From the IMG/VR virus record IMGVR_UViG_2667527976_000002: 31,378 bases of DNA. One strand, written 5' to 3'. The DNA comes from a virus. Lineage: Duplodnaviria; Heunggongvirae; Uroviricota; Caudoviricetes. Made by a program: the position numbers and the translations under genes. Shown in pieces: positions 1,076 to 13,070 of this stretch (position 1 is the stretch's first letter; every line of letters begins with the position of its first letter). The notes below the pieces were generated by a model, which saw only the letters and a program-made list of their open reading frames with translations, ran no database searches and was not told the origin of the DNA.

Positions 1076-1990
1076 ATGCGCTCAATAAAAAAAGTAACCA
1101 TGCTCTTGGGGGGCCTCGCACTCACCTGCTCGATCGCATTTCAGGCAAGTGCAACTGAAAAATTCAAGGTCATTACAACATTTACCATCATCGCAGATAT
1201 GGCCAAAAACGTGGCTGGAGATGCTGCAGAAGTCTCATCCATAACCAAGCCCGGTGCAGAAATTCATGAGTATCAGCCTACCCCTGGCGATATTAAACGT
1301 GCGCAGGGGGCACAACTGATTCTCGCCAATGGTATGAATCTGGAATTGTGGTTCCAACGCTTTTACCAGCATCTTAATGGGGTTCCAGAAGTAATTGTCT
1401 CTTCGGGTGTGACGCCAGTAGGGATCACTGAAGGCCCCTATGAGGGCAAACCTAACCCCCATGCCTGGATGTCGCCAGATAATGCTCTGATTTACGTCGA
1501 TAATATTCGTGATGCGTTGATAAAATACGATCCGGCAAATGCACAAACCTACCAACGTAATGCCGATACTTATAAAGCCAAGATTACCCAAACCCTTGCC
1601 CCCCTGCGTAAGCAGATTGCTGAACTCCCTGAGAATCAGCGATGGATGGTCACCAGTGAAGGGGCTTTTTCTTATCTCGCACGCGATTTGGGGCTAAAAG
1701 AGCTTTATCTGTGGCCGATTAATGCCGATCAACAAGGCACGCCGCAGCAGGTACGTAAGGTTGTTGATATGGTGAAGAAAAATCATATCCCGGCAGTCTT
1801 TAGCGAGAGTACGATTTCCGATAAACCAGCGCGTCAGGTTGCGCGTGAAACCGGCGCGCACTACGGCGGTGTACTCTATGTCGATTCCCTGAGCACAGAA
1901 AACGGCCCGGTACCTACGTATATCGACCTTCTGAAGGTTACTACCAGTACGCTGGTACAGGGAATTAAAGCCGGGAAAAGGGAGAAATAA
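1076..1990 (+). CDS. sitA: Periplasmic Mn/Fe-binding protein of ABC transporter (cluster A-I / TroA-like), SitA
   Basis: 304-aa ORF with signal peptide ([26 protein letters not shown]); ATG start at 1076; stop overlaps the sitB start. Confidence 0.9.
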
Positions 1991-2817
1991 TGATGCAATC
2001 TGCGGGCATTGTCGTTAATGATGTTACTGTCACCTGGCGTAACGGGCACACAGCACTGCGCGATGCATCCTTCACAGTACCAAGTGGATCTATTGCCGCT
2101 CTGGTTGGGGTAAACGGTTCCGGAAAATCGACGTTGTTTAAAGCGATTATGGGATTTGTGCGTCTGACCAGCGGAAAGATATCTGTTCTGGGTATTCCCA
2201 CGCGACAGGCGCTACAGAAAAACCTGGTTGCCTACGTCCCTCAGTCAGAAGAGGTTGACTGGTCATTTCCTGTACTAGTGGAAGATGTGGTGATGATGGG
2301 CCGCTATGGGCACATGGGTATGTTGCGTATAGCCAAAAAGAGGGATCGTCAGATTGTCACCGATGCGCTGGAACGTGTCGATATGGTGGATTTTCGCCAT
2401 CGACAAATCGGCGAGCTTTCCGGTGGACAAAAGAAACGCGTCTTTCTGGCGAGAGCGATTGCACAGCAGGGTGATGTGATCCTGCTGGATGAACCTTTTA
2501 CCGGCGTTGATGTGAAAACCGAAGCGAAAATCATCAGCCTGTTGAGGGAGTTACGCGCGGAAGGCAAGACGATGCTTGTCTCAACGCACAATCTCGGCTC
2601 AGTCACGACATTTTGCGATTATACGGTCATGGTCAAAGGCACCGTCCTGGCAAGCGGGCCGACAGACACCACTTTTACAGCCGAGAACCTGGAGCTGGCT
2701 TTTAGCGGCGTACTGCGCCATGTCACACTTAACGGCTCGGAAGAAAGCATTATTACTGACGATGAACACCCTTTTGTGGCACATCGACCGTCAGCGGTGC
2801 AGGGGGAAGCAAGATGA
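1990..2817 (+). CDS. sitB: ABC transporter ATP-binding protein SitB
   Basis: 275 aa; Walker [13 protein letters not shown] signature LSGGQKKR, Walker B ILLDEP; start overlaps sitA stop (translational coupling). Confidence 0.9.
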
Positions 2818-3671
2818 ACGTGCTACTGGAACCCTTCAGCTATGAATATATGCTCAATGCGATGTGGGTCTCGGCGATGGTCGGCGGTCTCTGCGCTTTC
2901 CTGTCATGCTATCTGATGCTAAAAGGCTGGTCGCTGATTGGCGATGCGCTGTCGCACTCTATTGTCCCAGGTGTTGCGGGGGCATATATGCTGGGGCTTC
3001 CGTTTTCTCTGGGAGCCTTCTTTTCCGGCGGACTGGCAGCGGGCAGCATGCTGTTTCTTAACCAACGCACTCGCTTAAAAGAAGATGCCATCATCGGCCT
3101 GATCTTCTCCTCCTTTTTTGGCCTGGGGCTGTTTATGGTGTCATTGAACCCGACATCCGTGAACATTCAGACCATCGTCCTGGGCAATATTCTGGCAATC
3201 GATCCGGCGGATATCCTGCAACTCACTATCATTGGCATTCTCTCGATCATCGTGCTTTTTTTCAAATGGAAAGATCTTATGGTGACCTTTTTCGACGAGA
3301 ATCACGCTCGTGCTATTGGATTGCATCCGGGCAGATTAAAAATCCTCTTCTTCACCCTGCTGTCGGTTTCGACCGTTGCGGCGCTGCAAACGGTTGGTGC
3401 CTTTCTGGTGATCTGTCTGGTGGTGACTCCCGGTGCAACAGCATGGTTGTTAACCGATCGTTTTCCCCGCCTGCTCATAATTGCTGTAACTATTGGCAGT
3501 GTAACCAGTTTCCTCGGCGCGTGGGTCAGTTACTTTCTGGACGGCGCGACAGGTGGAATCATCGTGGTGGCGCAGACACTGCTGTTTCTTTTAGCATTTG
3601 TATTTGCGCCCACCCATGGGCTTTTGGCAAATCGTCGGCGTGCGCATAAAGCGCTGGAGGATCGCTCATGA
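2814..3671 (+). CDS. sitC: ABC transporter permease SitC
   Basis: 285-aa polytopic hydrophobic protein; start overlaps sitB stop by 4 nt. Confidence 0.9.
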
Positions 3672-4525
3672 TGGCATTATTACTGGAGCCACTGCAGTTC
3701 ACCTTTATGAGTCACGCACTGCTGATTTCACTGGTAGTTTCCATACCCTGTGCGCTGCTGTCGGTCTTTCTGGTCCTGAAAGGTTGGGCACTGATGGGTG
3801 ACGCGATGAGTCATGCGGTTTTTCCTGGCATCGTGCTTGCCTGGATTCTGGGGTTACCTCTGGCTACAGGGGCATTCGTCGCCGGAGTATTCTGCGCGGT
3901 GGCGACGGGATACCTGAAAGACAACAGCCGAATCAAGCAAGATACAGTGATGGGGATTGTTTTTTCTGGCATGTTTGCCGCAGGTCTGATCTTGTATATT
4001 GCAGTCAAACCAGACGTACATCTTGACCATATTCTTTTCGGCGACATGCTCGGGGTAACCATCGGCGATATAATCCAGACGGTGATTATTGCCGGGCTGG
4101 TTACACTTGTTATTAGCGTAAAATGGCGGGATTTTTTGCTGTTCAGCTTTGATTATCAACAGGCGCAGGTAAGCGGTTTGCATACGAGATGTCTGCATTA
4201 TGGGCTGCTGTGCATGGTCTCTCTGACCATTGTGGCGACGCTGAAAGCGGTAGGTATCATTCTCTCCATTTCTCTGCTCATTGCGCCTGGCGCCATTGCG
4301 GTACTCCTGACACAACGCTTTCATATTGCGCTCCTACTGGCGATTGGCATATCGGTAATAGTGTCAATGACTGGTGTCTGGTTGTCCTTTTTTATCGACA
4401 GTGCACCAGCTCCGACGATTGTCGTCTTATTCGCGGTTGTGTTCATCATGACGTTCACCGTTACCAGCATCAACGCACGCACAAAGGGAAACACCCATAC
4501 ACAGGATTTGTCATCACCCAATTAG
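3668..4525 (+). CDS. sitD: ABC transporter permease SitD
   Basis: 285-aa hydrophobic paralogue of SitC; ATGATG start overlaps sitC stop. Confidence 0.9.
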   Translation: MMALLLEPLQFTFMSHALLISLVVSIPCALLSVFLVLKGWALMGDAMSHAVFPGIVLAWILGLPLATGAFVAGVFCAVATGYLKDNSRIKQDTVMGIVFSGMFAAGLILYIAVKPDVHLDHILFGDMLGVTIGDIIQTVIIAGLVTLVISVKWRDFLLFSFDYQQAQVSGLHTRCLHYGLLCMVSLTIVATLKAVGIILSISLLIAPGAIAVLLTQRFHIALLLAIGISVIVSMTGVWLSFFIDSAPAPTIVVLFAVVFIMTFTVTSINARTKGNTHTQDLSSPN

Positions 4526-4689
4526 CACAACATCCGAGGGCAGCATCGTCCGCTGGCCCACAGAAGTCCGGAAAGTCATGGAAGGTCGTTGTTGGGAGGA
4601 GGTACAAATTCTCTCATGCAAAAAATACGTAAAATCGATAATAGCTGGAAATAATTCAATACATGCACTCTCGAAAGTGCATCAGCCAA

Positions 4690-4723
4690 CCGCAGAACGT
4701 TATTGCATACAACGTTTCTGCGG
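4690..4723. repeat. Imperfect palindrome (12/13-bp arms, 9-nt loop) in the sitD to tail-fibre spacer
   Basis: ccgcagaacgtt-attgcatac-aacgtttctgcgg; a second shorter palindrome atgcact-ctcgaa-agtgcat lies at 4663-4682. Neither is followed by a T-run on either strand. Confidence 0.4.
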
Positions 4724-4876
4724 CATAATCCCAATGATTACTCCCTGACAGGGTTCGTAGGCCACTCAATATCAGGTGCAGTTGATGTATCAACACGGTT
4801 CAGCAGCATCCGATACTTTTTCCAGGCTTCCAGCAACGGGGTTTCTTCCTCCGTTGCATATACAGCTCACCTTTTT

Positions 4877-5176
4877 TCACCCACGATTAACCAACAGCCA
4901 GACCAGCAGACACGCCACCACCGGCACAGCAAAATCCATCAGGCTTGCCACATCCCATGCACGTGTATCAAAACCGCCCCACCACGGCATATTCATTCGC
5001 TTGCCATGCCCGAACATTTCGATCCAGCGATATTCTGCCTGGGTGTGTTCACGCGCAATGAAGAACGTACAACCGGCTATCGCCCCGTAAGCCCAGTTCC
5101 CGGTAAAAAGACCAATCAGTAGCTGCGCAGCCACAGCACAAAGCGCATGAAGGAAAGGTGTTATATCCATTTTCAT
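4877..5176 (-). CDS. Hypothetical small membrane protein (about 97-99 aa, three hydrophobic segments)
   Basis: Track ORF 4877-5185 begins at a TTG. In-frame ATGs at 5174-5176 and 5168-5170 (the latter with AGGA 6 nt upstream) are more plausible starts. The product MKMDITPFLHALCAVAAQLLIGLF... is hydrophobic. Function not recognised. Confidence 0.35.
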   Translation of the reverse strand: MKMDITPFLHALCAVAAQLLIGLFTGNWAYGAIAGCTFFIAREHTQAEYRWIEMFGHGKRMNMPWWGGFDTRAWDVASLMDFAVPVVACLLVWLLVNRG

Positions 5177-5185
5177 CCTACCCAA

Positions 5186-5207
5186 TAAAACGGGGCGCTC
5201 GGCCCCT
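5186..5207 (-). terminator. Candidate rho-independent terminator after the tail-fibre operon
   Basis: Minus-strand hairpin ggggc-cgagc-gcccc (5192-5206) followed by guuuuauu; located 6 nt downstream of the stop of the 346-aa gene. Confidence 0.4.
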
Positions 5208-5212
5208 TAATA

Positions 5213-6253
5213 TTATTTAGACGCAAGCGCCGCCTCAATTGCAGATAATCTTTGTCTTAATTCTGCGTTTTCTTCTTCCAGTGCTGTTATTCTGTCGTCT
5301 GACTCTCTGGCTACCTGAACAAGCAAGCCAGTAACACCAGAATAATCTACTGTGTAATAACGTTCACCTTCTTCACCTTCCGATCCGCTCGCACCGTCCT
5401 GATATTTCATTGCGGAACCTACAACTTCTGGGATTGCTTCCAGAGCTTCCTGTGCAATGACACCAGCATAGGGCATACCGTTTTCTTTAAGCGTGTATGT
5501 ATAGCCGTTCATTTTACGGATGCGGTCGGTTGCATTATCGATCACCTGAATGTTGTCTTTCAGATCCCGGTCGGAATGCTGGTTAAATGCGGTGGCATGA
5601 CATGCACCATTAACGCTTAACATATAGGTGTTATCGGTATTTTTCTGCGCATAGAACATATAAGCGCCACCATCAACACCGACTTCATAAACAACAGGAC
5701 GGCTGGAGTTGCCCCACAATTGAGCAGTAACACCAGCATAAGCGGTTCCCTGTGTGTTTAATGTCATGGTTGACCCATGATTGGCATATTTGATCTGTAA
5801 TGTGTCGGTGTAATCAAATTTAATAAGCGCGTTACTTCCACGCTTGCTGTATGACATAAGGCAGTTACCCATTTTGAGGTATCCGCTGTCACCGGGAAAA
5901 ATCATCGTACCGCCATAAAGGTTGGTAAAGTCCCAGCAAATGTTTGTCCCGTTATCGTTCAGGTTAAGGCGCGCCATTGCGTTACCTGGACTGTCTATCC
6001 ATTTTTTGAGGTATAGTTCGCAATACGCATCCTCAACACCTGCCGTCCTGTGAGTTGAGCGGAGTTTTCTCCCAAATATAGCTCCGCTAGTTGGCAATAC
6101 CTGCTGATACCATGAAGCAGACCAGTCACCAACGATTTCATCTTTGCTGTCTACATATAATTTTGTTGCGTAGCTTCCTTGATCGTTTTTTAATTTGCTA
6201 ACGTCGGATTTTAGCGTTTTGATGTCATCAGGAATTACTGTCGATGTAGCCAT
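5213..6253 (-). CDS. Tail fibre / tailspike-like protein with C-terminal peptidase-S74-type intramolecular chaperone domain
   Basis: 346 aa, ATG at 6251-6253. The C-terminal ~110 aa (HSDRDLKDNIQVIDNATDRIRKMNGYTYTLKENGMPYAGVIAQEALEAIPEVV ... ITALEEENAELRQRLSAIEAALASK) has the hallmark motifs of the autoproteolytic chaperone of endosialidase-type fibres (SDxxLKxNI, GxIAQE, terminal coiled coil). Confidence 0.7.
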   Translation of the reverse strand: MATSTVIPDDIKTLKSDVSKLKNDQGSYATKLYVDSKDEIVGDWSASWYQQVLPTSGAIFGRKLRSTHRTAGVEDAYCELYLKKWIDSPGNAMARLNLNDNGTNICWDFTNLYGGTMIFPGDSGYLKMGNCLMSYSKRGSNALIKFDYTDTLQIKYANHGSTMTLNTQGTAYAGVTAQLWGNSSRPVVYEVGVDGGAYMFYAQKNTDNTYMLSVNGACHATAFNQHSDRDLKDNIQVIDNATDRIRKMNGYTYTLKENGMPYAGVIAQEALEAIPEVVGSAMKYQDGASGSEGEEGERYYTVDYSGVTGLLVQVARESDDRITALEEENAELRQRLSAIEAALASK

Positions 6254-6262
6254 TTTTCTTCC

Positions 6263-6544
6263 TCACATCCAGCCACGAAGTTGATGCTCAACAGCAACCA
6301 CGTATTCATCGAATAATGACGATATTTGCGAATCATTAATGATGCGCACGTTTACAAAATATCCGTCTTCCTTAACACATACCGGTTCGCCATCTTCAGT
6401 CAGTTCTCCGGTTTCTTTGTACACGTTACCTATCACGTCGATAAGAATATCATCCTGCATCGACTCGTCATCATAATAGCCAATACTCTCCATAAAGGCC
6501 GAAAAGTCGGCCCTGTCTTCAAATTTGAGTGTTAAATCTTTCAT
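6263..6544 (-). CDS. Hypothetical small acidic protein (93 aa) encoded between the two fibre genes
   Basis: ATG at 6542-6544 overlaps the stf stop (TAATG); its stop lies 10 nt before the next gene; Asp/Glu-rich. Function not recognised. Confidence 0.55.
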   Translation of the reverse strand: MKDLTLKFEDRADFSAFMESIGYYDDESMQDDILIDVIGNVYKETGELTEDGEPVCVKEDGYFVNVRIINDSQISSLFDEYVVAVEHQLRGWM

Positions 6545-8943
6545 TAGATTGACTCCCCCATTTGTGCCTCAGTTAATTCTTTATGCCAAATGCGTAAATT
6601 TTTCACATGACCGAACAGGTGTCTGTTGCCACTGGATGATTGTCCACCGATATTAATATTACCGGCAGTATAACGTTGCAATGTATGCAGAGACGGGGAG
6701 CTGCCACCTAAAATTCCATCAACAACAACCTGCAACTGTTTATCTTCTGTAAACTTAAAGCCAGTAACAAATTTCCTTTTCTCTCTATTCCCATATGCTT
6801 TATATTCTGTTTTTGTTCCTTTGCCATTGGTGATAATTAGCCTTTTACCACGAGTGGTAAAACCAAAATACATATAACTTTCATCAGAAACTTCAGTCGT
6901 CGCCCCTGTAATTGAGATATTAAGCAAACGCGCAGAGCCTTCTAAATTAGGCATTTCAGAATCCCAATTAACATTAACTTCCATGAGAACACTAACTGGT
7001 GGAGTTGCCCAATTGAAAGGTATAGGTATGATTACCTGGTCACTTGCTCTCGTGGCACCGACCTCTGTTGTGATGATAAAAGATGACGCGTTTAGTCCCT
7101 TTTCGAATTGAGGGGTTGTTAACATTAATTTATCGCCAGACTTGATTGATCGTTGATGTGCTCCAAACTCAAAACGCCCATACATATTTTTTGCTTCTGG
7201 TGATTTGTAGGTAAACTCAACACGAATCCATCCATTAGACTCTCTGAATATGTTATAAGTTGCCGCCTCACCTCCAGAATAACTCAACATATCGCCAGTC
7301 TCGCAATCAATATATGCGCCAGCGGTCAGTGTGTTACTTGAGCCATCGTCGTTAACATATGATATTCTTGGACGCAACGTGATAATACCATCCCCACTTA
7401 CTTTTTTAACTCTGCAGGATAAAGTAACTGATTCATTTGCCGAAACTGAAATAACCCTGGTATATCCAGTAGAAATTAATGTCGCCCTTTCAGTTGTGGA
7501 TGTTTCTTTAACGCCAAACAAACCATAACTGAAACCATACTCATCAACTCCCGTGGTAATAGTTAAGTTAGCAGTGTCATAGTTCCACGATACTGGTGTA
7601 TTCGTATAAGAAAAAGTATTCGTTCTCTGACCTTCAATGAGCAGACCATCTTTTTCAAAACGTGGTTCATTTATCGCTGATTCAGCAAAACACCCAGACT
7701 TATCTATATACGTTGCAGTTGACGCCCTGGTAAATGAAACAACCTTTTCAGACGGCAATGCAATAACATCGTCACCAACTGTGATGCTCTTATATCCAGG
7801 AGCAAACCCGGTAATCATATCCAGTGAATCGTTAAACGGTATCCACACCTCAGGTAACGGCTGTAAGACATATTTATACGGCTCCGCAGCCTGGCTTGCG
7901 TACTCTCTGGCTGCATCTTCGCTTGCTTTAGCTGCCGTCTGGCTTGCTGCCGATGCTTTCGCTGAGTTCGCAGCCGCTGTTTCGCTCGCCTTTGCGTTGG
8001 TTTCACTGGTTTTTGCTGCTTTTTGACTGTTAGCTGATGCAGTGGCAGAAGCAGCCGCCGCACTTGCAGAACCAGCTGCAGCACTCTCGCTTTCAGCTGC
8101 TGCAGCCTGACTACTTTTCGCCGCAGTTTCACTGGCTTTGGCATTCGTTTCGCTGGTCTTCGCTGCTGTCTGGCTGGACTTTGCGTTAGTTTCACTCGTC
8201 TTCGCAGCTTTCTGGCTGTTAGCCGCAGCAGTTGCTGATCCGGCTGCTGAAGTCGCAGAACCGGCCGCCGCACTCTCGCTTTCAGCTGCTGCATCCTGAC
8301 TGCTTTTCGCCGCAGTTTCACTGGCTTTGGCATTCGTTTCGCTGGTTTTCGCTGCCGTCTGGCTGGACTTCGCGTTGGTTTCGCTCGTCTTTGCGGCTGT
8401 CTCACTGTTTTTCGCGTTGGTTTCTGATTTTTTGGCTGCAGTCGCGGAGTTTGCCGATGCAGTCTGTGAGGCCGCTGCCGCCTGTGCGCTGTTAGCTGCG
8501 TTCGTTTCTGAGGTTTTCGCCGCGTTCTTCGATGATGCCGCTGCTGTTTCGGATTTCTTTGCCGCCGCTGCGCTCTGAGAGGCGGCTTCAGCGTTGCGTG
8601 CCGCTTCTTCCACCATTTCCTCAAAACGACGCAATGCCTCCGGCATGACATCATCTTCCGTCATGGCACCGAGAAAATCATTCAGCGTCCCCGGCTTAGA
8701 ATCTTCATACACGGTGATGGTCCCGGCATGTGAAGGCGGAAAACCTTCAACCAGCAGGATAACGCTGTACTGGCCATACTCAACATCCATGCTGTAACGC
8801 CCGGCTTCATCCGGATTTTCAGAGGCCACCGTGTTCACCAGTACCGTGGTGCTGTTACGCTTTGCCTTCAGTTGAATAGTGCAGTTCTGTATTGGTTTTC
8901 CCGCACCATCTTTCAGCACACCTGAGATTTTTACTGCTGCCAT
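6544..8943 (-). CDS. stf: Side tail fibre protein Stf: lambda-like N-terminus, Ala/Ser/Thr-rich repeat shaft, non-lambda C-terminal domain (LamG-like tip)
   Basis: N-terminus MAAVKISGVLKDGAGKPIQNCTIQLKAKRNSTTV... matches recalled lambda Stf. The track ORF starts at a GTG at 8947-8949; the ATG at 8941-8943 gives the lambda-like start. The C-terminus ...NINIGGQSSSGNRHLFGHVKNLRIWHKELTEAQMGESI resembles laminin-G/concanavalin-type lectin folds. Confidence 0.85.
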   Translation of the reverse strand: MAAVKISGVLKDGAGKPIQNCTIQLKAKRNSTTVLVNTVASENPDEAGRYSMDVEYGQYSVILLVEGFPPSHAGTITVYEDSKPGTLNDFLGAMTEDDVMPEALRRFEEMVEEAARNAEAASQSAAAAKKSETAAASSKNAAKTSETNAANSAQAAAASQTASANSATAAKKSETNAKNSETAAKTSETNAKSSQTAAKTSETNAKASETAAKSSQDAAAESESAAAGSATSAAGSATAAANSQKAAKTSETNAKSSQTAAKTSETNAKASETAAKSSQAAAAESESAAAGSASAAAASATASANSQKAAKTSETNAKASETAAANSAKASAASQTAAKASEDAAREYASQAAEPYKYVLQPLPEVWIPFNDSLDMITGFAPGYKSITVGDDVIALPSEKVVSFTRASTATYIDKSGCFAESAINEPRFEKDGLLIEGQRTNTFSYTNTPVSWNYDTANLTITTGVDEYGFSYGLFGVKETSTTERATLISTGYTRVISVSANESVTLSCRVKKVSGDGIITLRPRISYVNDDGSSNTLTAGAYIDCETGDMLSYSGGEAATYNIFRESNGWIRVEFTYKSPEAKNMYGRFEFGAHQRSIKSGDKLMLTTPQFEKGLNASSFIITTEVGATRASDQVIIPIPFNWATPPVSVLMEVNVNWDSEMPNLEGSARLLNISITGATTEVSDESYMYFGFTTRGKRLIITNGKGTKTEYKAYGNREKRKFVTGFKFTEDKQLQVVVDGILGGSSPSLHTLQRYTAGNINIGGQSSSGNRHLFGHVKNLRIWHKELTEAQMGESI
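8020..8397. repeat. Tandem direct repeat (2 copies of ~189 bp plus a partial third) inside stf
   Basis: Near-identical DNA blocks (for example 8088-8215 versus 8268-8395) encode the 63-aa unit AAKTSETNAKSSQTAAKTSETNAKASETAAKSSQ(D/A)AAAESESAAAGSA...ANSQK twice, with nested ~14-aa sub-repeats. Confidence 0.7.
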
Positions 8944-8954
8944 ATCCACTCCAC

Positions 8955-8981
8955 AAAAAAGCCCGCCTGAACCGGCGGGCT
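8955..8981 (-). terminator. Rho-independent terminator downstream of lom
   Basis: Minus-strand hairpin agcccgcc-ggttca-ggcgggct followed by uuuuuu; sits between the lom stop (9008) and the stf start (8943). Confidence 0.5.
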
Positions 8982-9007
8982 GTCATAACACTGTGTTACC
9001 TGGCTAA

Positions 9008-9607
9008 TCAGAACTTATAACCGACACCCACGATGAAACCGTCAGTGCGCCAGTCACCACTGCCGGAGCCTTCATAAGCAATATCAATGGCCACGGATTC
9101 GGTCGGGTTAAACTGCACGCCAGCTCCCCACGCCAGAGACGTGTTGCTGTGGCGACCGTCATCACTTCCGGTCAGCACATCGTGCGTTTTCCCCTTGTTG
9201 TCAGTTACGCGGAGGTAATCCCCGGAAAAAGTCGAAACACGGCTGTAAGCCATACCCGCCATCGCATACGCGCTGAACCATTCATTCACGCGCACAGACG
9301 GCCCCGCCATCACGCTGAACCAGCGGTTACGCACGGAATCTTTATGCCAGCGGGTATCGCTGTAACGGGTCAGCTGACGATTCTTGTATCCTGCATAACT
9401 GAATGACGTCACCAGCCCCAGCGTGTCCGTAAATTCATAACGGTATTTCACGTTAATGCCCTTCAGGTCATCACTGCCTGGCATATCAGTATGGGTCTGA
9501 AGATACCCGGCGCTTAGTGTGGACTGATGCTCTGCTGCGCTCGCTGGCGTACCAGCGGCAACCAGCCAGACTACTGCGGACAGAATAACAGCACATAATT
9601 TACGCAT
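9008..9607 (-). CDS. lom: Outer-membrane protein Lom (Ail/Lom family beta-barrel)
   Basis: 199 aa with signal peptide MRKLCAVILSAVVWLVAAGTPASA; body closely matches recalled lambda Lom; ATG at 9605-9607. Confidence 0.9.
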   Translation of the reverse strand: MRKLCAVILSAVVWLVAAGTPASAAEHQSTLSAGYLQTHTDMPGSDDLKGINVKYRYEFTDTLGLVTSFSYAGYKNRQLTRYSDTRWHKDSVRNRWFSVMAGPSVRVNEWFSAYAMAGMAYSRVSTFSGDYLRVTDNKGKTHDVLTGSDDGRHSNTSLAWGAGVQFNPTESVAIDIAYEGSGSGDWRTDGFIVGVGYKF

Positions 9608-9674
9608 AATTACCTCTCGCTTTTCTGCAATAAAAAAGGCGTCATTTCTGACGCCCGTATTGGGGTTATAAAAT

Positions 9675-12600
9675 TCAGCTGATACTGATGCCTGCAGTGG
9701 CTTTCTTCATCACAACAACCAGCAAATCGCTGATACTTGCTGTGGGATACCAACCATTTACCCACCATGCTGATACAGAAAACTCCAGTGTCATTACACC
9801 ACTGCCTGCAGGCATATCAATAACACCCGTGTAAATCAGAGTATTATCCAGAGCCGTTCGGTTATAAATTTCAGCCCCGTTTTTCTTCACTATCAGGCGG
9901 CATGACGAATAAGTATCGCTATTCTCCCGCTCATGTCTGGCACCGCAGAAAGCCACCGCTGGAATAACAATTTGCCGGTCAAACGACTGATCGTCATAAA
10001 CCCTGACGGTAATAGTCCCTGATGGCCACCGCTCCGGTGCACGGGAGTCCCGGGGGAAAGCTTTGCCCACTGTTTTAACGAGATCGCCTTCAATCTGGTT
10101 CGCGGACAGTTTTCCCAGAACCCGACAGTTCTCGTTAATCGTGACATTATTGAGCGTCCCGGAGTTCGCATTCACGTTACCGCTGATATCGGCATTTTTC
10201 GCCGTCAGCCGCCCGTCCGGTGTCAGGGAAAATACCGGAGGATTGCCGCCACTGGTAATGGTGGGAGCCGTCAGATACTTCAGGAACACTTCGTTCATGA
10301 ATATCTGGTTGCCCTGCGCCACAAACATCGGCGTTTCATTCCCGTTTGCCGGGTCAATAAACGCGATACGGTTAGCGGCAACCAGGAACTGGCTCAGTTT
10401 GCCTTCCTCCGTATCCTCCATACTAAGGCCAAGCCCCGCGACATAATGCCTGCCGTCTTCGGTCTGCTCAATTTTGACGCCCCACATGGCATTCCATTTA
10501 TCGTTGGCGTCCTTCCACTCTTTCGAAAACTCCTCCAGTTTGCTGGCGTTATCCTCCGTCAGCTCGACTTTTTCCAGCAGCTCCTTGCCGAGATGGGATT
10601 CGGTTATCTGGCCTTTGAAAAAATCCAGGTAACCTTCCGCATCATCGCTCGGCTGACCAACAGCCTCCACGAATGCCGATTTGCCAACGGTGTTCACACT
10701 GCGGATATAAAAGTAATAATCATGGCCCGGTTTGATATTGATACTGGCAGCTATCCAGTACAGCGCCGTACCAAGATAGCGGGCTGTGGTCTCAACCTGC
10801 CTGATATCGGTAATCCGCTTTTCCGAGAACCAGAACTCAAACTGTACCGTCGGATCATAAACCGCAAGATGCGGCGTGGCAGTTATCTGAAAATAGCCCG
10901 GCGTCAGCTCAATCCGCGACGGCGCTGCCGGTGCGGCAATCCGGAACGATACCGATGCCGGATCGCCCTGCTGTCCCCACGCATTTACCGCCCGGACCGT
11001 CAGCGTGTAACGCCCCAGCGCCAGTTGCCTGAAGCGGTATGTGGTTTCCGTCGTCCTGGCCGTGCTGACCAGCCGCTCACTGCCGTCATCCGCTGCCACG
11101 GTCAGGCGAAGCATAAAGCTCACCCCCTTCACCACCTTCGGCGTATCCCAGCGCGCCAGCACCTGATACTCCCCGCTGTCTGAGGTGACTTCGGCAGTCA
11201 GGTGCTGCACCGCAGGCGGCGTGACACCATTCACCGTGCCGCTCTGGTCGCCGTCAAAGTGCGCCCCGTTATCCACGATGGCCTCTTTTTCCGGCACATG
11301 CTGCACGGCGGTGATGGCATACGTGCCGTCGTCGTTCTCACGGATACTCACGCAGCGGAACAGGCGCTGGCGCAGCGTCGGCAGCTTCAGCCCCCACACG
11401 CTGTATTCAGCAACACCGTCAGGAACACGGCTCACTTTTACCTTCACGCCGTCGGTGACGGACTGAACCTCCACGCTGACCGGATTGCCACTTCCGTCAA
11501 CCAGACTTATCAGCGTGGTACCGGAGGATGGCAGCGTGATTTCACGGTCGAGCGTCAGCGTCCGGGTCTGGCTGTTCACCGCCAGCACGCGCCCGCCGAT
11601 GCTGATACCCGCATAGTCATCATCACAGATTTCAATGACATCCCCCGGTACATGGCGAAGCCCTTCCGCACCCACGCTGAAGTCCACGGTCTGCGTTTCC
11701 AGCAGTTCCGTTTTAATCAGCCACAGCCCGGCGCGGTGCGCCTGCCCCCGGCTGGTACAGCCAAAGGCATCCATCTTCGTGACGTTACGACCGTAACGGG
11801 CAATGGCCTGCGTATCTTCAACAAGCTCTGTCGCCGTCTCCCAGCCGTTGTTCGGGTCAATCCAGTTCACCTCAACGGCATTATGGCGGTCCTTCAGGGC
11901 GCTGAAGCTGTAGCGGAACGGCGCGCCATCATCCGGCATCACCACATTACTGCGGTTATAGGTCCACACCTTATCTGATGGTCGGTCCTGCACGAACGTC
12001 AGCGTCTGCCCGTTCCATACCGGCATACAGCGCATCGCCGAGCAGAAATCACTGAGCACATCCCACGCCTTGCGCTGTGTGGTCAGCCAGGCATTACAGG
12101 TGATGCGCGGCTCCGTGCCACCAAAGCCATCCGGCACCGACTGGTCGCAATTCTGGCCGATGACATACAGCGCCCATTTGTCCACATCCGCCGCACCGAG
12201 ACGCTTCCCCATGCCGTAGCGCGGATGGGTCAGCATATCCCACAGACACCAGGCCATGTTGTTGCTGTATGCTGGCTTAAACGTTCCGTCCCAGATACCG
12301 CTGTATTGTCGCGTCTGCGGGTTATAGTTCGACGGCACCTGCAGAATGCGCCCGCGAAGATGATAATTACGACTCACCTGCTGGCTGCCGAACTGCTCCG
12401 AGTCCACCTGTACGCTGACCAGTGCCGTGTTCGGGTAGCACTGTTTCACATCGATGATTTCGGTGTATGACGACCAGAGCGTTTTGTTCTGCAGCTGGTC
12501 TGTGGTGCTGTCCGGCGTCATCCTGCGCATCCGGATATTAAACGGGCGCGGCGGCAGGTTATCCACCACCACCGAGGCCAGATACTGCGAGGTGGTTTTG

Positions 12601-13070
12601 CCTTTAATGGTGATGTCTTTTTCCGTCACCCAGCCACCGTTACGCTGTATCTGAACCAGCAGGCGGACTTCCGACGGATTCCGGTCCCCCTTTGAGGTGG
12701 TTTCCACCAGTGCCTGCACACCGAAGGTAAAGCGCAGACGGTCGATGTTTGCAGACGTGATGGTCCGGGTAATCGGCGTGTCGTACTTCACTTCCGTACC
12801 CAGCACCGTCTCGGAGCCGGAGGATTCAAATCCCTCCGGCGGTGTCTGCTCCTGCTCACCTGCCCGGAACACCACCGTGACACCGGAGATATTGGTATTC
12901 CCCTCACTGTCCAGCACCGGCGTACTGTTCAGCAGCACACTTTTTAATCCGTCCACCGGACCTTCAATCGGCCCTTCACTGATGGCGTCTATCACGCTCA
13001 GCATCTGGGATGATTTCAGGTTGTCCTTCGCTTCGCGCGGGGTATGCCCCTTACTGCTGCCTTTACCCAT
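9675..13070 (-). CDS. J: Tail tip / host-specificity protein J (central tail fibre)
   Basis: 1131 aa; N-terminus [20 protein letters not shown]... and most of the body match recalled lambda J; the C-terminal ~150 aa diverge. Confidence 0.95.

Follow-up and report, generated by a model that had tools for sequence, protein, structure and literature searches.

How does a lambda-type side tail fibre locus work when stf is followed not by tfa but by two genes of quite different kinds? The question is raised by the late region of a lambda-like Escherichia coli prophage, contained in a 31,378-nucleotide stretch of DNA (IMG/VR record IMGVR_UViG_2667527976_000002; hereafter the window), in which stf is followed by orf93, encoding a small acidic protein of 93 residues, and orf346, encoding a 346-residue protein that ends in an S74 chaperone domain. 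Side tail fibres help to set the E. coli strain range of lambdoid phages and lambda-derived delivery particles, mainly by O-antigen and capsule recognition, and an earlier note made from the sequence alone had proposed that the orf346 product is a second receptor-binding protein, docked onto Stf or using the 93-residue protein as an adaptor. The answer we arrive at is that the three genes together would encode a single composite side tail fibre, in which orf346 is probably a distal binding subunit, carried by the virion and attached by way of the C-terminal module of Stf.

The gene order on the minus strand is J (9675-13070), lom (9008-9607), stf, orf93, orf346, a hairpin, a gene for a 97-residue protein (4877-5170), and a remnant of tfa. 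The components of the fibre cassette and its edges are as follows.

8960-8981, minus strand: terminator-like hairpin in the interval between lom and stf, the upstream edge of the unit.
6544-8943, minus strand: stf, an intact open reading frame (ORF) with an ATG start (799 amino acids, MAAVKISG..., the start seen in homologues and the one favoured); a GTG start would give 6544-8949 and 801 amino acids.
6542-6546, minus strand: TAATG, the overlap of the stf stop with the orf93 start (translational coupling).
6263-6544, minus strand: orf93, matching phrog_1361 over its full length (E=2.5e-46).
6254-6262, minus strand: 9-nucleotide spacer GGAAGAAAA from orf93 to orf346, which together with the TGA stop gives a GAGGAA Shine-Dalgarno sequence.
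5213-6253, minus strand: orf346, predicted to be a distal fibre or receptor-binding protein whose C-terminal part is an intramolecular chaperone, matching phrog_4563 over its full length.
5192-5206, minus strand: intrinsic-terminator-like hairpin GGGGCCGAGCGCCCC followed by the T-run GTTTTATT, the 3' edge of the stf-orf93-orf346 unit.

The three coupled genes and the TAATG overlap are present just as the earlier note described them, and the gap from the second to the third gene, given there as 10 nucleotides, is 9 nucleotides (6262-6254). Because there are hairpins at both edges of the trio, we regard stf, orf93, and orf346 as one unit. Stf matches phrog_1419 over its full length. The 4.9 kb around the cassette is 100% identical to the chromosomes of several E. 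coli strains, in which the Prokaryotic Genome Annotation Pipeline (PGAP) and RefSeq break stf up into a pair of partial pseudogenes and a short 'phage tail protein'. Since there is no interruption in the stf ORF, this three-way split is an annotation artefact, apparently caused by the repeat-containing shaft together with domain-based naming. RefSeq annotation of this locus is thus poor, with an intact stf split in three and orf93 called hypothetical.

The orf346 product can be divided into three parts, with a pair of predicted catalytic residues at the start of the third.

6143-6253, minus strand: residues 1-37, a conserved N-terminal peptide (MATSTVIPDDIKTLKSDV...) and, after it, a short run of heptads; proposed docking element.
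5576-6142, minus strand: residues 38-226, variable region predicted to bind a receptor.
5216-5575, minus strand: residues 227-346, Peptidase_S74 intramolecular chaperone.
5573-5575, minus strand: codon for Ser227, in the motif SDRDLK.
5558-5560, minus strand: codon for Lys232, in the same motif.

A search with profile hidden Markov models bears out the C-terminal S74 chaperone: Pfam Peptidase_S74 (PF13884) matches residues 227-278 with E=4.8e-14 and 52.8 bits against a cut-off of 22, and a sequence match to PDB entry 6f45 spans residues 215-327. The lysine lies five residues downstream of the serine, a spacing equal to that of Ser1264 and Lys1269 in T5 pb1, for which the Ser/Lys mechanism and the unmasking of the tip upon cleavage are established (PMC4690869). 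Because the catalytic serine of pb1 departs with the chaperone, the cut in orf346 is expected before Ser227, rather than after the conserved serine of SDRDLK as first suggested, and the mature protein should be residues 1-226, autoproteolysis being predicted.

In orf346, residues 110-221 are approximately 31% identical to residues 486-599, the distal part, of the 669-residue P2 gpH. When compared with its PhiR11_1 relative, identity falls to 63% in residues 38-226, while the N-terminal part and the chaperone stand at 86% and 95%, respectively. The ratio of non-synonymous to synonymous substitution rates (dN/dS) is about 0.2 in comparisons with ESCO3 and PhiR11_1, indicating purifying selection. 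Over residues 1-226 the protein shares 100% identity with its counterpart in PhiR63_1, a plaque-forming phage, and 99-100% with those in Tritos and 2G7b; over its full length orf346 differs from the Tritos protein at one residue. These data bear directly on whether the cassette is an inactive remnant of a decaying prophage, a circumstance that the earlier note named, for the 346-residue protein, as one that would undermine its proposal. A tfa fragment does lie nearby and PGAP calls pieces of stf pseudogenes, but the stf frame is unbroken, orf346 is intact, under purifying selection, and near-identical in plaque-forming phages, and orf93 and orf346 are present together in 520 complete genomes. 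We consider decay of the cassette to be extremely improbable.

A different role for the third gene is suggested by database names, with the KarlJaspers protein annotated as 'putative lateral tail fiber chaperone' and that of ESCO3 as 'endosialidase chaperone'. Read literally, these names would make the product a cap or a trans-acting chaperone for Stf and not a receptor-binding protein, and the alleles of 225-234 residues, in which the coiled coil leads almost straight into S74, fit such a role. S74 domains, however, act in cis on their own polypeptide and are then released (PMC4690869). The 346-residue allele has a region of about 190 residues with relatives in the distal tips of P2 gpH and other fibres, and this region varies more than the rest of the protein, as receptor-binding domains usually do. 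Fibres of JakobBernoulli and RuthEpting that combine a coiled coil, a T5-like tip, and a chaperone are related and are shown as the fibres of phages that use the O16 O-antigen (PMC11990801). JakobBernoulli (Bas07) is not among the best 60 of 181 matches to the ~92-residue orf93 family, and these matches do not allow its O16-binding fibre to be linked to the cassette. A role solely as cap or chaperone is thus unlikely, and from these comparisons the 346-residue protein looks like a real second receptor-binding subunit riding on the Stf module.

What the distal protein could be attached to depends on the organization of Stf, whose recognizable parts are listed here.

8548-8937, minus strand: virion-anchor domain phage_tail_N (PF08400), residues 5-134 in the 801-residue numbering, E=1.6e-68.
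7910-8562, minus strand: shaft of 21-nucleotide (7-residue) repeats of the SETNAK/SETAAK type.
6547-7839, minus strand: C-terminal module of about 430 residues, PLPEVWIPFNDSL ... RHLFGHVKNLRIWHKELTEAQ, with conserved ends and a variable interior.
7045-7641, minus strand: GTA_spike_fiber (NCBIfam NF048003), residues 437-635, 66 bits against a cut-off of 36.
6562-6885, minus strand: borderline Laminin_G_3 lectin-like domain, residues ~689-796, 28.0 bits against a gathering score of 27.6.

Stf has both the phage_tail_N anchor and the gene order J, lom, stf that characterize lambda-type side tail fibres, and its N-terminal domain also matches the solved chain 9e7m_Ta (E=2e-50). Within the shaft is a 189-nucleotide tandem duplication (7973-8161 and 8162-8350, 84% identical), and among loci with complete genes Stf varies in length from 682 to 803 residues, a few shorter ORFs appearing truncated; shaft length may change through gain and loss of repeats. 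The Laminin_G_3 search that had been proposed does yield a match, but one that rises above threshold only when residues 501-801 are scanned alone; a longer fragment scores 27.3 bits, and a scan of the whole of Stf does not list the domain. The final 160 residues of Stf form a basic segment, with an isoelectric point (pI) of 9.2.

Alignment of the window Stf with 12 other proximal fibres (13 fibres in all, from six phage groups) shows that a module extending from PLPDVWIPFNDSL to RHLFGHIRNFRIWHK.LTD.Q is common to all of them, and that the ~92-residue gene always comes next. The N-terminal anchors of these fibres are of several kinds: phage_tail_N in the window and in ESCO3, Tail_spike_N in the rV5-like phage nimi, and no recognized N-terminal domain in the proximal fibres of IrisVonRoten (gp22), KarlJaspers, and KarlBarth.

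The third-gene products found behind this module vary greatly in length (98, 225, 234, 346, 351, or 574 residues), and all open with a common peptide, M[AV]T.T.IP.DI..LK, with variants MATSTVIPDDIKTLK, MVTKTVIPTDITKLK, MATVTNIPADITALK, and MVTKTNIPADITALK. All end in S74 apart from the 98-residue KarlBarth protein, in which no S74 match was found. In KarlBarth, a Dhillonvirus, the 98-residue gene (MVTKTNIPADITALK...) overlaps a 196-residue ORF containing Phage_tail_C_2 and not S74; this might be a distal fibre, split or frameshifted, whose tip is of another type. The earlier note held that the mature part of orf346 lacks an N-terminal virion anchor; there is indeed no Pfam anchor, but a conserved N-terminal peptide of about 20 residues is present.

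This peptide is tightly linked to the ~92-residue gene. In all 78 of the IMG/VR loci that reach past orf93 the third gene lies exactly 9 nucleotides 3' of it, and the product starts with MATSTVIP (MAISTVIP in one). A tblastn search with the first 38 residues of orf346 matches 60 phage records, and in every record that was cross-checked against the ~92-residue gene (about 35 of the 60, reference-sequence duplicates included) the match lies 9-16 nucleotides after that gene; among these cross-checked records no match at E<=1 to the MATSTVIP peptide falls outside a locus with the ~92-residue gene. The peptide is common to otherwise unrelated distal proteins of lambdoid, T1-like, T5-like, Dhillonvirus, and Nonagvirus phages, and the only components that peptide-bearing fibre loci share are the Stf C-terminal module (~430 residues, lectin-like) and the ~92-residue protein. 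Because the peptide is conserved despite unrelated anchors, this pattern of conservation suggests that it must dock on one or the other, the Stf C-terminal module or the ~92-residue protein.

Alternatively, orf346 could form a short fibre of its own, attached elsewhere on the tail (to J, the tail tip, or the tube), whose proximity to stf reflects genomic linkage only. Docking on Stf is itself something that we infer. Yet the peptide is found with unrelated anchors (T5-like, T1-like, 9g-like, and lambda-like), the Stf module and the ~92-residue protein being what is shared, and the cryo-electron microscopy (cryo-EM) map of DT57C, which has an analogous two-protein system, contains no second fibre protein on the core virion (PMC10713586). 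We regard attachment elsewhere as very unlikely. The idea of a second receptor-binding protein docked on Stf has thus gained from the intact gene, the purifying selection, the shared peptide, and the structural models of IrisVonRoten described below.

The ~92-residue protein itself is widespread. It is found by tblastn in 181 phage records, including those of Dhillonvirus and rV5-like phages, and in nearly all of the annotated matches its gene adjoins an annotated tail fibre gene; in the aligned fibres it always comes after a gene with the Stf-type C-terminal module. A profile search of 1.84 billion representative proteins gave 93 clusters, mostly of proteins of about 90 residues, and long PKD- and TPR-repeat proteins that also appeared were rejected as relatives because their scores are sums of many weak matches of 4-14 bits each. 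The window protein is strongly acidic (pI 4.05), and its AlphaFold2 model has a pLDDT (predicted local distance difference test) score of 85 and a small alpha+beta fold with several beta strands. Fold searches with this model gave no informative match and none to any known fibre connector, and a sequence search of the PDB gave matches at chance level only. We found no paper addressing the role of this small protein.

In five phages, namely phage 21, Perceval, 2G7a, ev243, and 4A7, stf occurs with a 92-residue gene and the 97-residue gene, and there is no distal fibre gene. Comparison of the ~92-residue genes of phage 21 and ev243 gives a proportion of differing synonymous sites (pS) of 0.88, at which synonymous sites are saturated, and a corresponding non-synonymous proportion (pN) of 0.25, indicating purifying selection. 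Since purifying selection acts on the gene even where no third gene is present, it would seem to serve the Stf module itself. From these sequence comparisons orf93 cannot be merely an adaptor for orf346, as had been suggested, although it may also act as a socket.

How orf93 serves Stf is a matter on which two accounts diverge, and between a chaperone and a structural role we see roughly even odds. In one, orf93 is solely a folding or assembly chaperone for the lectin-like head of Stf, a functional replacement for Tfa that is absent from the virion, and the distal protein sits directly on Stf. This has some plausibility, though we do not favour it outright: orf93 occupies the place of tfa right after stf and is translationally coupled to it, members of the family are seen with the Stf C-terminal module in every case, regardless of a distal gene, and tfa in the window prophage is reduced to a remnant. 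Counting against it, to our knowledge LamG-type lectin domains generally need no dedicated chaperones.

In the other account, which we put forward tentatively, orf93 is a structural socket or hinge kept on the Stf tip in the virion, in the manner of T4 gp35 between gp34 and gp36, and the distal peptide binds orf93 and not Stf. The order of proximal fibre, small protein, and distal fibre agrees with this, as do the fixed distance of 9-16 nucleotides to the distal gene and the position of every checked peptide-bearing gene directly downstream of a ~92-residue gene. The small, well-folded domain with its beta strands would suit a connector, and the acidic orf93 beside the basic end of Stf would suit an interface. 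On the other side are the purifying selection on orf93 homologues in phages that have no distal gene, the lack of fold similarity to known fibre connectors, and the published IrisVonRoten models, which attach gp24 to gp22 and leave gp23 undescribed (PMC11990801).

The socket idea has a broader form that we offer as speculation, with doubtful standing at present. The ~92-residue protein (phrog_1361) and the peptide M[AV]T.T.IP.DI..LK might constitute a universal plug-and-socket joint, with the ~92-residue protein staying on the proximal lectin-like head as a new type of connector and any distal receptor-binding protein with a 15-20 residue peptide being swappable; the same joint would then operate in lambdoid, T1-like, T5-like, Dhillonvirus, and Nonagvirus phages. 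If this were true, the joint would be a ready-made handle for retargeting phage host range.

Returning to the composite fibre, we propose that Stf trimerises and would be anchored at the tail tip by its lambda-type N-terminal domain, with the heptad-repeat shaft leading to the ~430-residue module. The head of Stf, lectin-like (of GTA head-spike/LamG type) and hypervariable, probably binds a surface glycan. orf93, presumably translated by coupling from the stf stop, would be an accessory of the C-terminal module, serving to assemble it or else staying bound to it as a small subunit. orf346 would trimerise with the aid of its own S74 chaperone, which would cut itself off before Ser227 using the Ser227/Lys232 dyad and leave the tip exposed, and the mature 226-residue protein would plug its N-terminal peptide (MATSTVIPDDIKTLK...) into the Stf module or into Stf-bound orf93. 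The outcome would be a fibre with a second, independently exchangeable receptor-binding domain and, potentially, dual specificity.

Exchange of this kind is evident in the distribution of alleles. Among 66 complete IMG/VR loci, 8 Stf-tip clusters are seen with the 346-residue distal allele and 5 with the 234-residue allele, three clusters being common to both. The Stf tips of the window and Tritos are only 38-49% identical, whereas their orf93 and orf346 proteins are 97-100% identical. Because tip and distal alleles reassort freely, both positions would appear to act as exchangeable receptor-binding modules with a constant interface between them.

The earlier note had picked out this locus as the likeliest in the window to hold undescribed biology. 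In fact the cassette is not rare: all three proteins match PHROGs over their full lengths, and orf93 and orf346 together, at coverage of at least 80%, are present in 520 of 5426 complete E. coli genomes (~10%), with partial matches in 1130; the exact combination that includes the window Stf tip is rarer, occurring in 18 genomes. The trio is present in the cultured lambdoid phages Tritos, 2G7b, HannyBb, PhiR63_1, and PhiR11_1, of which Tritos came from a plaque on E. coli K-12 (PMC9928086), and also in the virulent Nonagvirus ESCO3, the T5-like IrisVonRoten (gp22-gp23-gp24), and the T1-like KarlJaspers.

Coliphage-type fibre cassettes also appear in records labelled as Campylobacter phages (for example C13 and A12a; 100-135 kb) and as Listeria phage LM 4-14-1 (7.5 kb), which look like mislabelled or contaminant sequences of T5-like and rV5-like coliphages. 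In Tritos a pinR-type site-specific recombinase lies approximately 230 bp past the fibre cassette, at the place occupied in the window by the tfa remnant and sitD. This raised the idea of an invertible fibre segment of the Gin/Cin/Pin type, which we rejected since there are no inverted repeats longer than 18 nucleotides in 4400-9700 and no recombinase gene adjoining the cassette in the window.

A number of observations weigh against the composite fibre as we have drawn it. We found no proteomics or cryo-EM in the literature for any cassette-bearing phage, and the presence of orf346 and orf93 in the virion is what we infer. The distal subunit is dispensable, in that phage 21, Perceval, 2G7a, ev243, and 4A7 work with Stf and the 92-residue protein alone. 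The short alleles of 225-234 residues would keep just ~110 residues of mature protein following cleavage, thin for a receptor-binding domain, and in databases proteins of this type bear chaperone names ('lateral tail fiber chaperone', 'endosialidase chaperone'). A single-sequence AlphaFold2 model of orf346 has a mean pLDDT of 35, too low for use, and the Laminin_G_3 match in Stf lies at threshold. Covariation was dropped as a means of choosing the socket between the Stf tip and orf93, because the genes overlap or abut and their similarity reflects linkage.

The neighbouring region holds traces of the history of the prophage and some of its cargo.

4877-5170, minus strand: gene for the 97-residue protein, phrog_1443; the phage 21 record annotates two transmembrane segments.
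4738-4857, minus strand: tfa remnant, the C-terminal 39 codons without the N-terminus, identified from a PGAP pseudogene call on 100%-identical DNA and from translation.
1076-4525, plus strand: sitABCD iron/manganese transporter operon, adjoining the fibre cassette.

The earlier note had reported that no Tfa-like protein is present, and there is no intact tfa after stf in the window; the 39-codon remnant, the sole tfa sequence there, had been overlooked. It is probably the scar of an earlier stf-tfa arrangement that was displaced by the present cassette. The 97-residue gene comes after the fibre genes in phages both with and without a distal fibre gene, lies past the terminator in the window, and could be a lysogenic-conversion or exclusion gene encoding a membrane protein. 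We interpret sitABCD as prophage cargo (a moron) and not flanking host DNA because the cultured phages 21, Perceval, 2G7a, and 4A7 have it at the same place; its expression from the Perceval prophage has been described (PMC9928086). Upstream of sitA, positions 1-1000 of the window have a G+C content of 35-41%, compared with 50-60% in the remaining prophage.

The architecture of the cassette is already known, through predicted structures for a T5-like phage and genetic work on a related system of two proteins; the cassette is abundant and already present in sequenced, viable phages. What appears to be new from our comparisons is that in five phage groups a conserved, proposed docking peptide is strictly linked to the ~92-residue gene, that Stf tip and distal alleles reassort freely, and that the ~92-residue protein likely has a role independent of the distal subunit. 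If the peptide is a portable docking tag, then new receptor-binding domains could be fitted to lambda-, T1-, and T5-type fibres with the virion anchor unchanged.

Comparison with characterized fibres places the cassette among several known systems. The Stf-Tfa fibre of lambda (Ur-lambda) resembles that of the window in its phage_tail_N anchor, its place after J and lom, and its repeat shaft, but in the window the Stf tip is a GTA-spike/LamG-type module, and orf93 and orf346 stand in the place of tfa, of which the 39-codon remnant is left. Phage 21, Perceval, and Lambda_2G7a share the prophage type, the sitABCD cargo, the 97-residue membrane protein gene, and the Stf module; their ~92-residue gene is 54% identical to orf93, and, lacking the third gene, they represent a two-gene form of the cassette. 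Neither a study of engineered lambda Stf chimeras (bioRxiv 10.1101/2022.09.30.509847) nor RBPseg (PMC12143355) treats the cassette.

T5 pb1 resembles orf346 in its S74 chaperone, its Ser-x4-Lys dyad, and the unmasking of its tip by autocleavage (PMC4690869), predicted for orf346, but it combines anchor, shaft, tip, and chaperone in one polypeptide of 1396 residues, whereas in the window tip and chaperone form a separate protein of 346 residues. The T4 fibre gp34-gp35-gp36-gp37 is likewise multi-subunit, with genes in proximal-to-distal order and a small connector gene between them, but uses the separate chaperones gp57A and gp38 and not S74, and no likeness of orf93 to known fibre connectors, in sequence or in fold, was detected.

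The first BASEL paper noted that siphovirus lateral fibres consist of one, two, or more proteins (PMC8594841), and for LtfA and LtfB of DT57C there is genetic evidence of fibre-on-fibre attachment (Golomidova et al. 2016, PMC4728585; PMC10713586). In LtfA-LtfB of DT57C/DT571-2 and in gp14-gp15 of phiEco32, as proposed for the cassette, an anchorless second fibre attaches to the first via a short conserved N-terminal segment and two specificities result. LtfB, however, is proposed to sit on the mid-shaft of LtfA (residues 223-471), as opposed to the C-terminal lectin-like module for the cassette; among the best 60 of the 181 tblastn matches to the ~92-residue protein there is no phiEco32-type phage, and none of the T5-like matches is DT57C.

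The nearest counterpart is IrisVonRoten (Bas32, Tequintavirus), for which AlphaFold-Multimer models place the distal gp24 on the proximal gp22 (Humolli et al. 2025, PMC11990801). It is a virulent phage of ~112 kb and not a prophage, its gp22 differs in the N-terminal region, where phage_tail_N gives no match, and its gp24 is a T-shaped protein of 574 residues with two receptor-binding domains, where orf346 would have one; no role is described for the 92-residue gp23 (PMC11990801). The protruding galectin-like or lectin-like extra domain of gp22 was suggested as a possible additional binding domain (PMC11990801). The gp22-gp23-gp24 locus nonetheless has the layout of the window, a fibre gene, an overlapping 92-residue gene, a 9-nucleotide gap, and an S74-chaperone fibre gene: identity between the C-terminal modules of gp22 and Stf is 38-51%, gp23 and orf93 share 38% identity, and gp24, like orf346, opens with the common peptide, as MVTKTVIPTDITKLK, and ends in S74.

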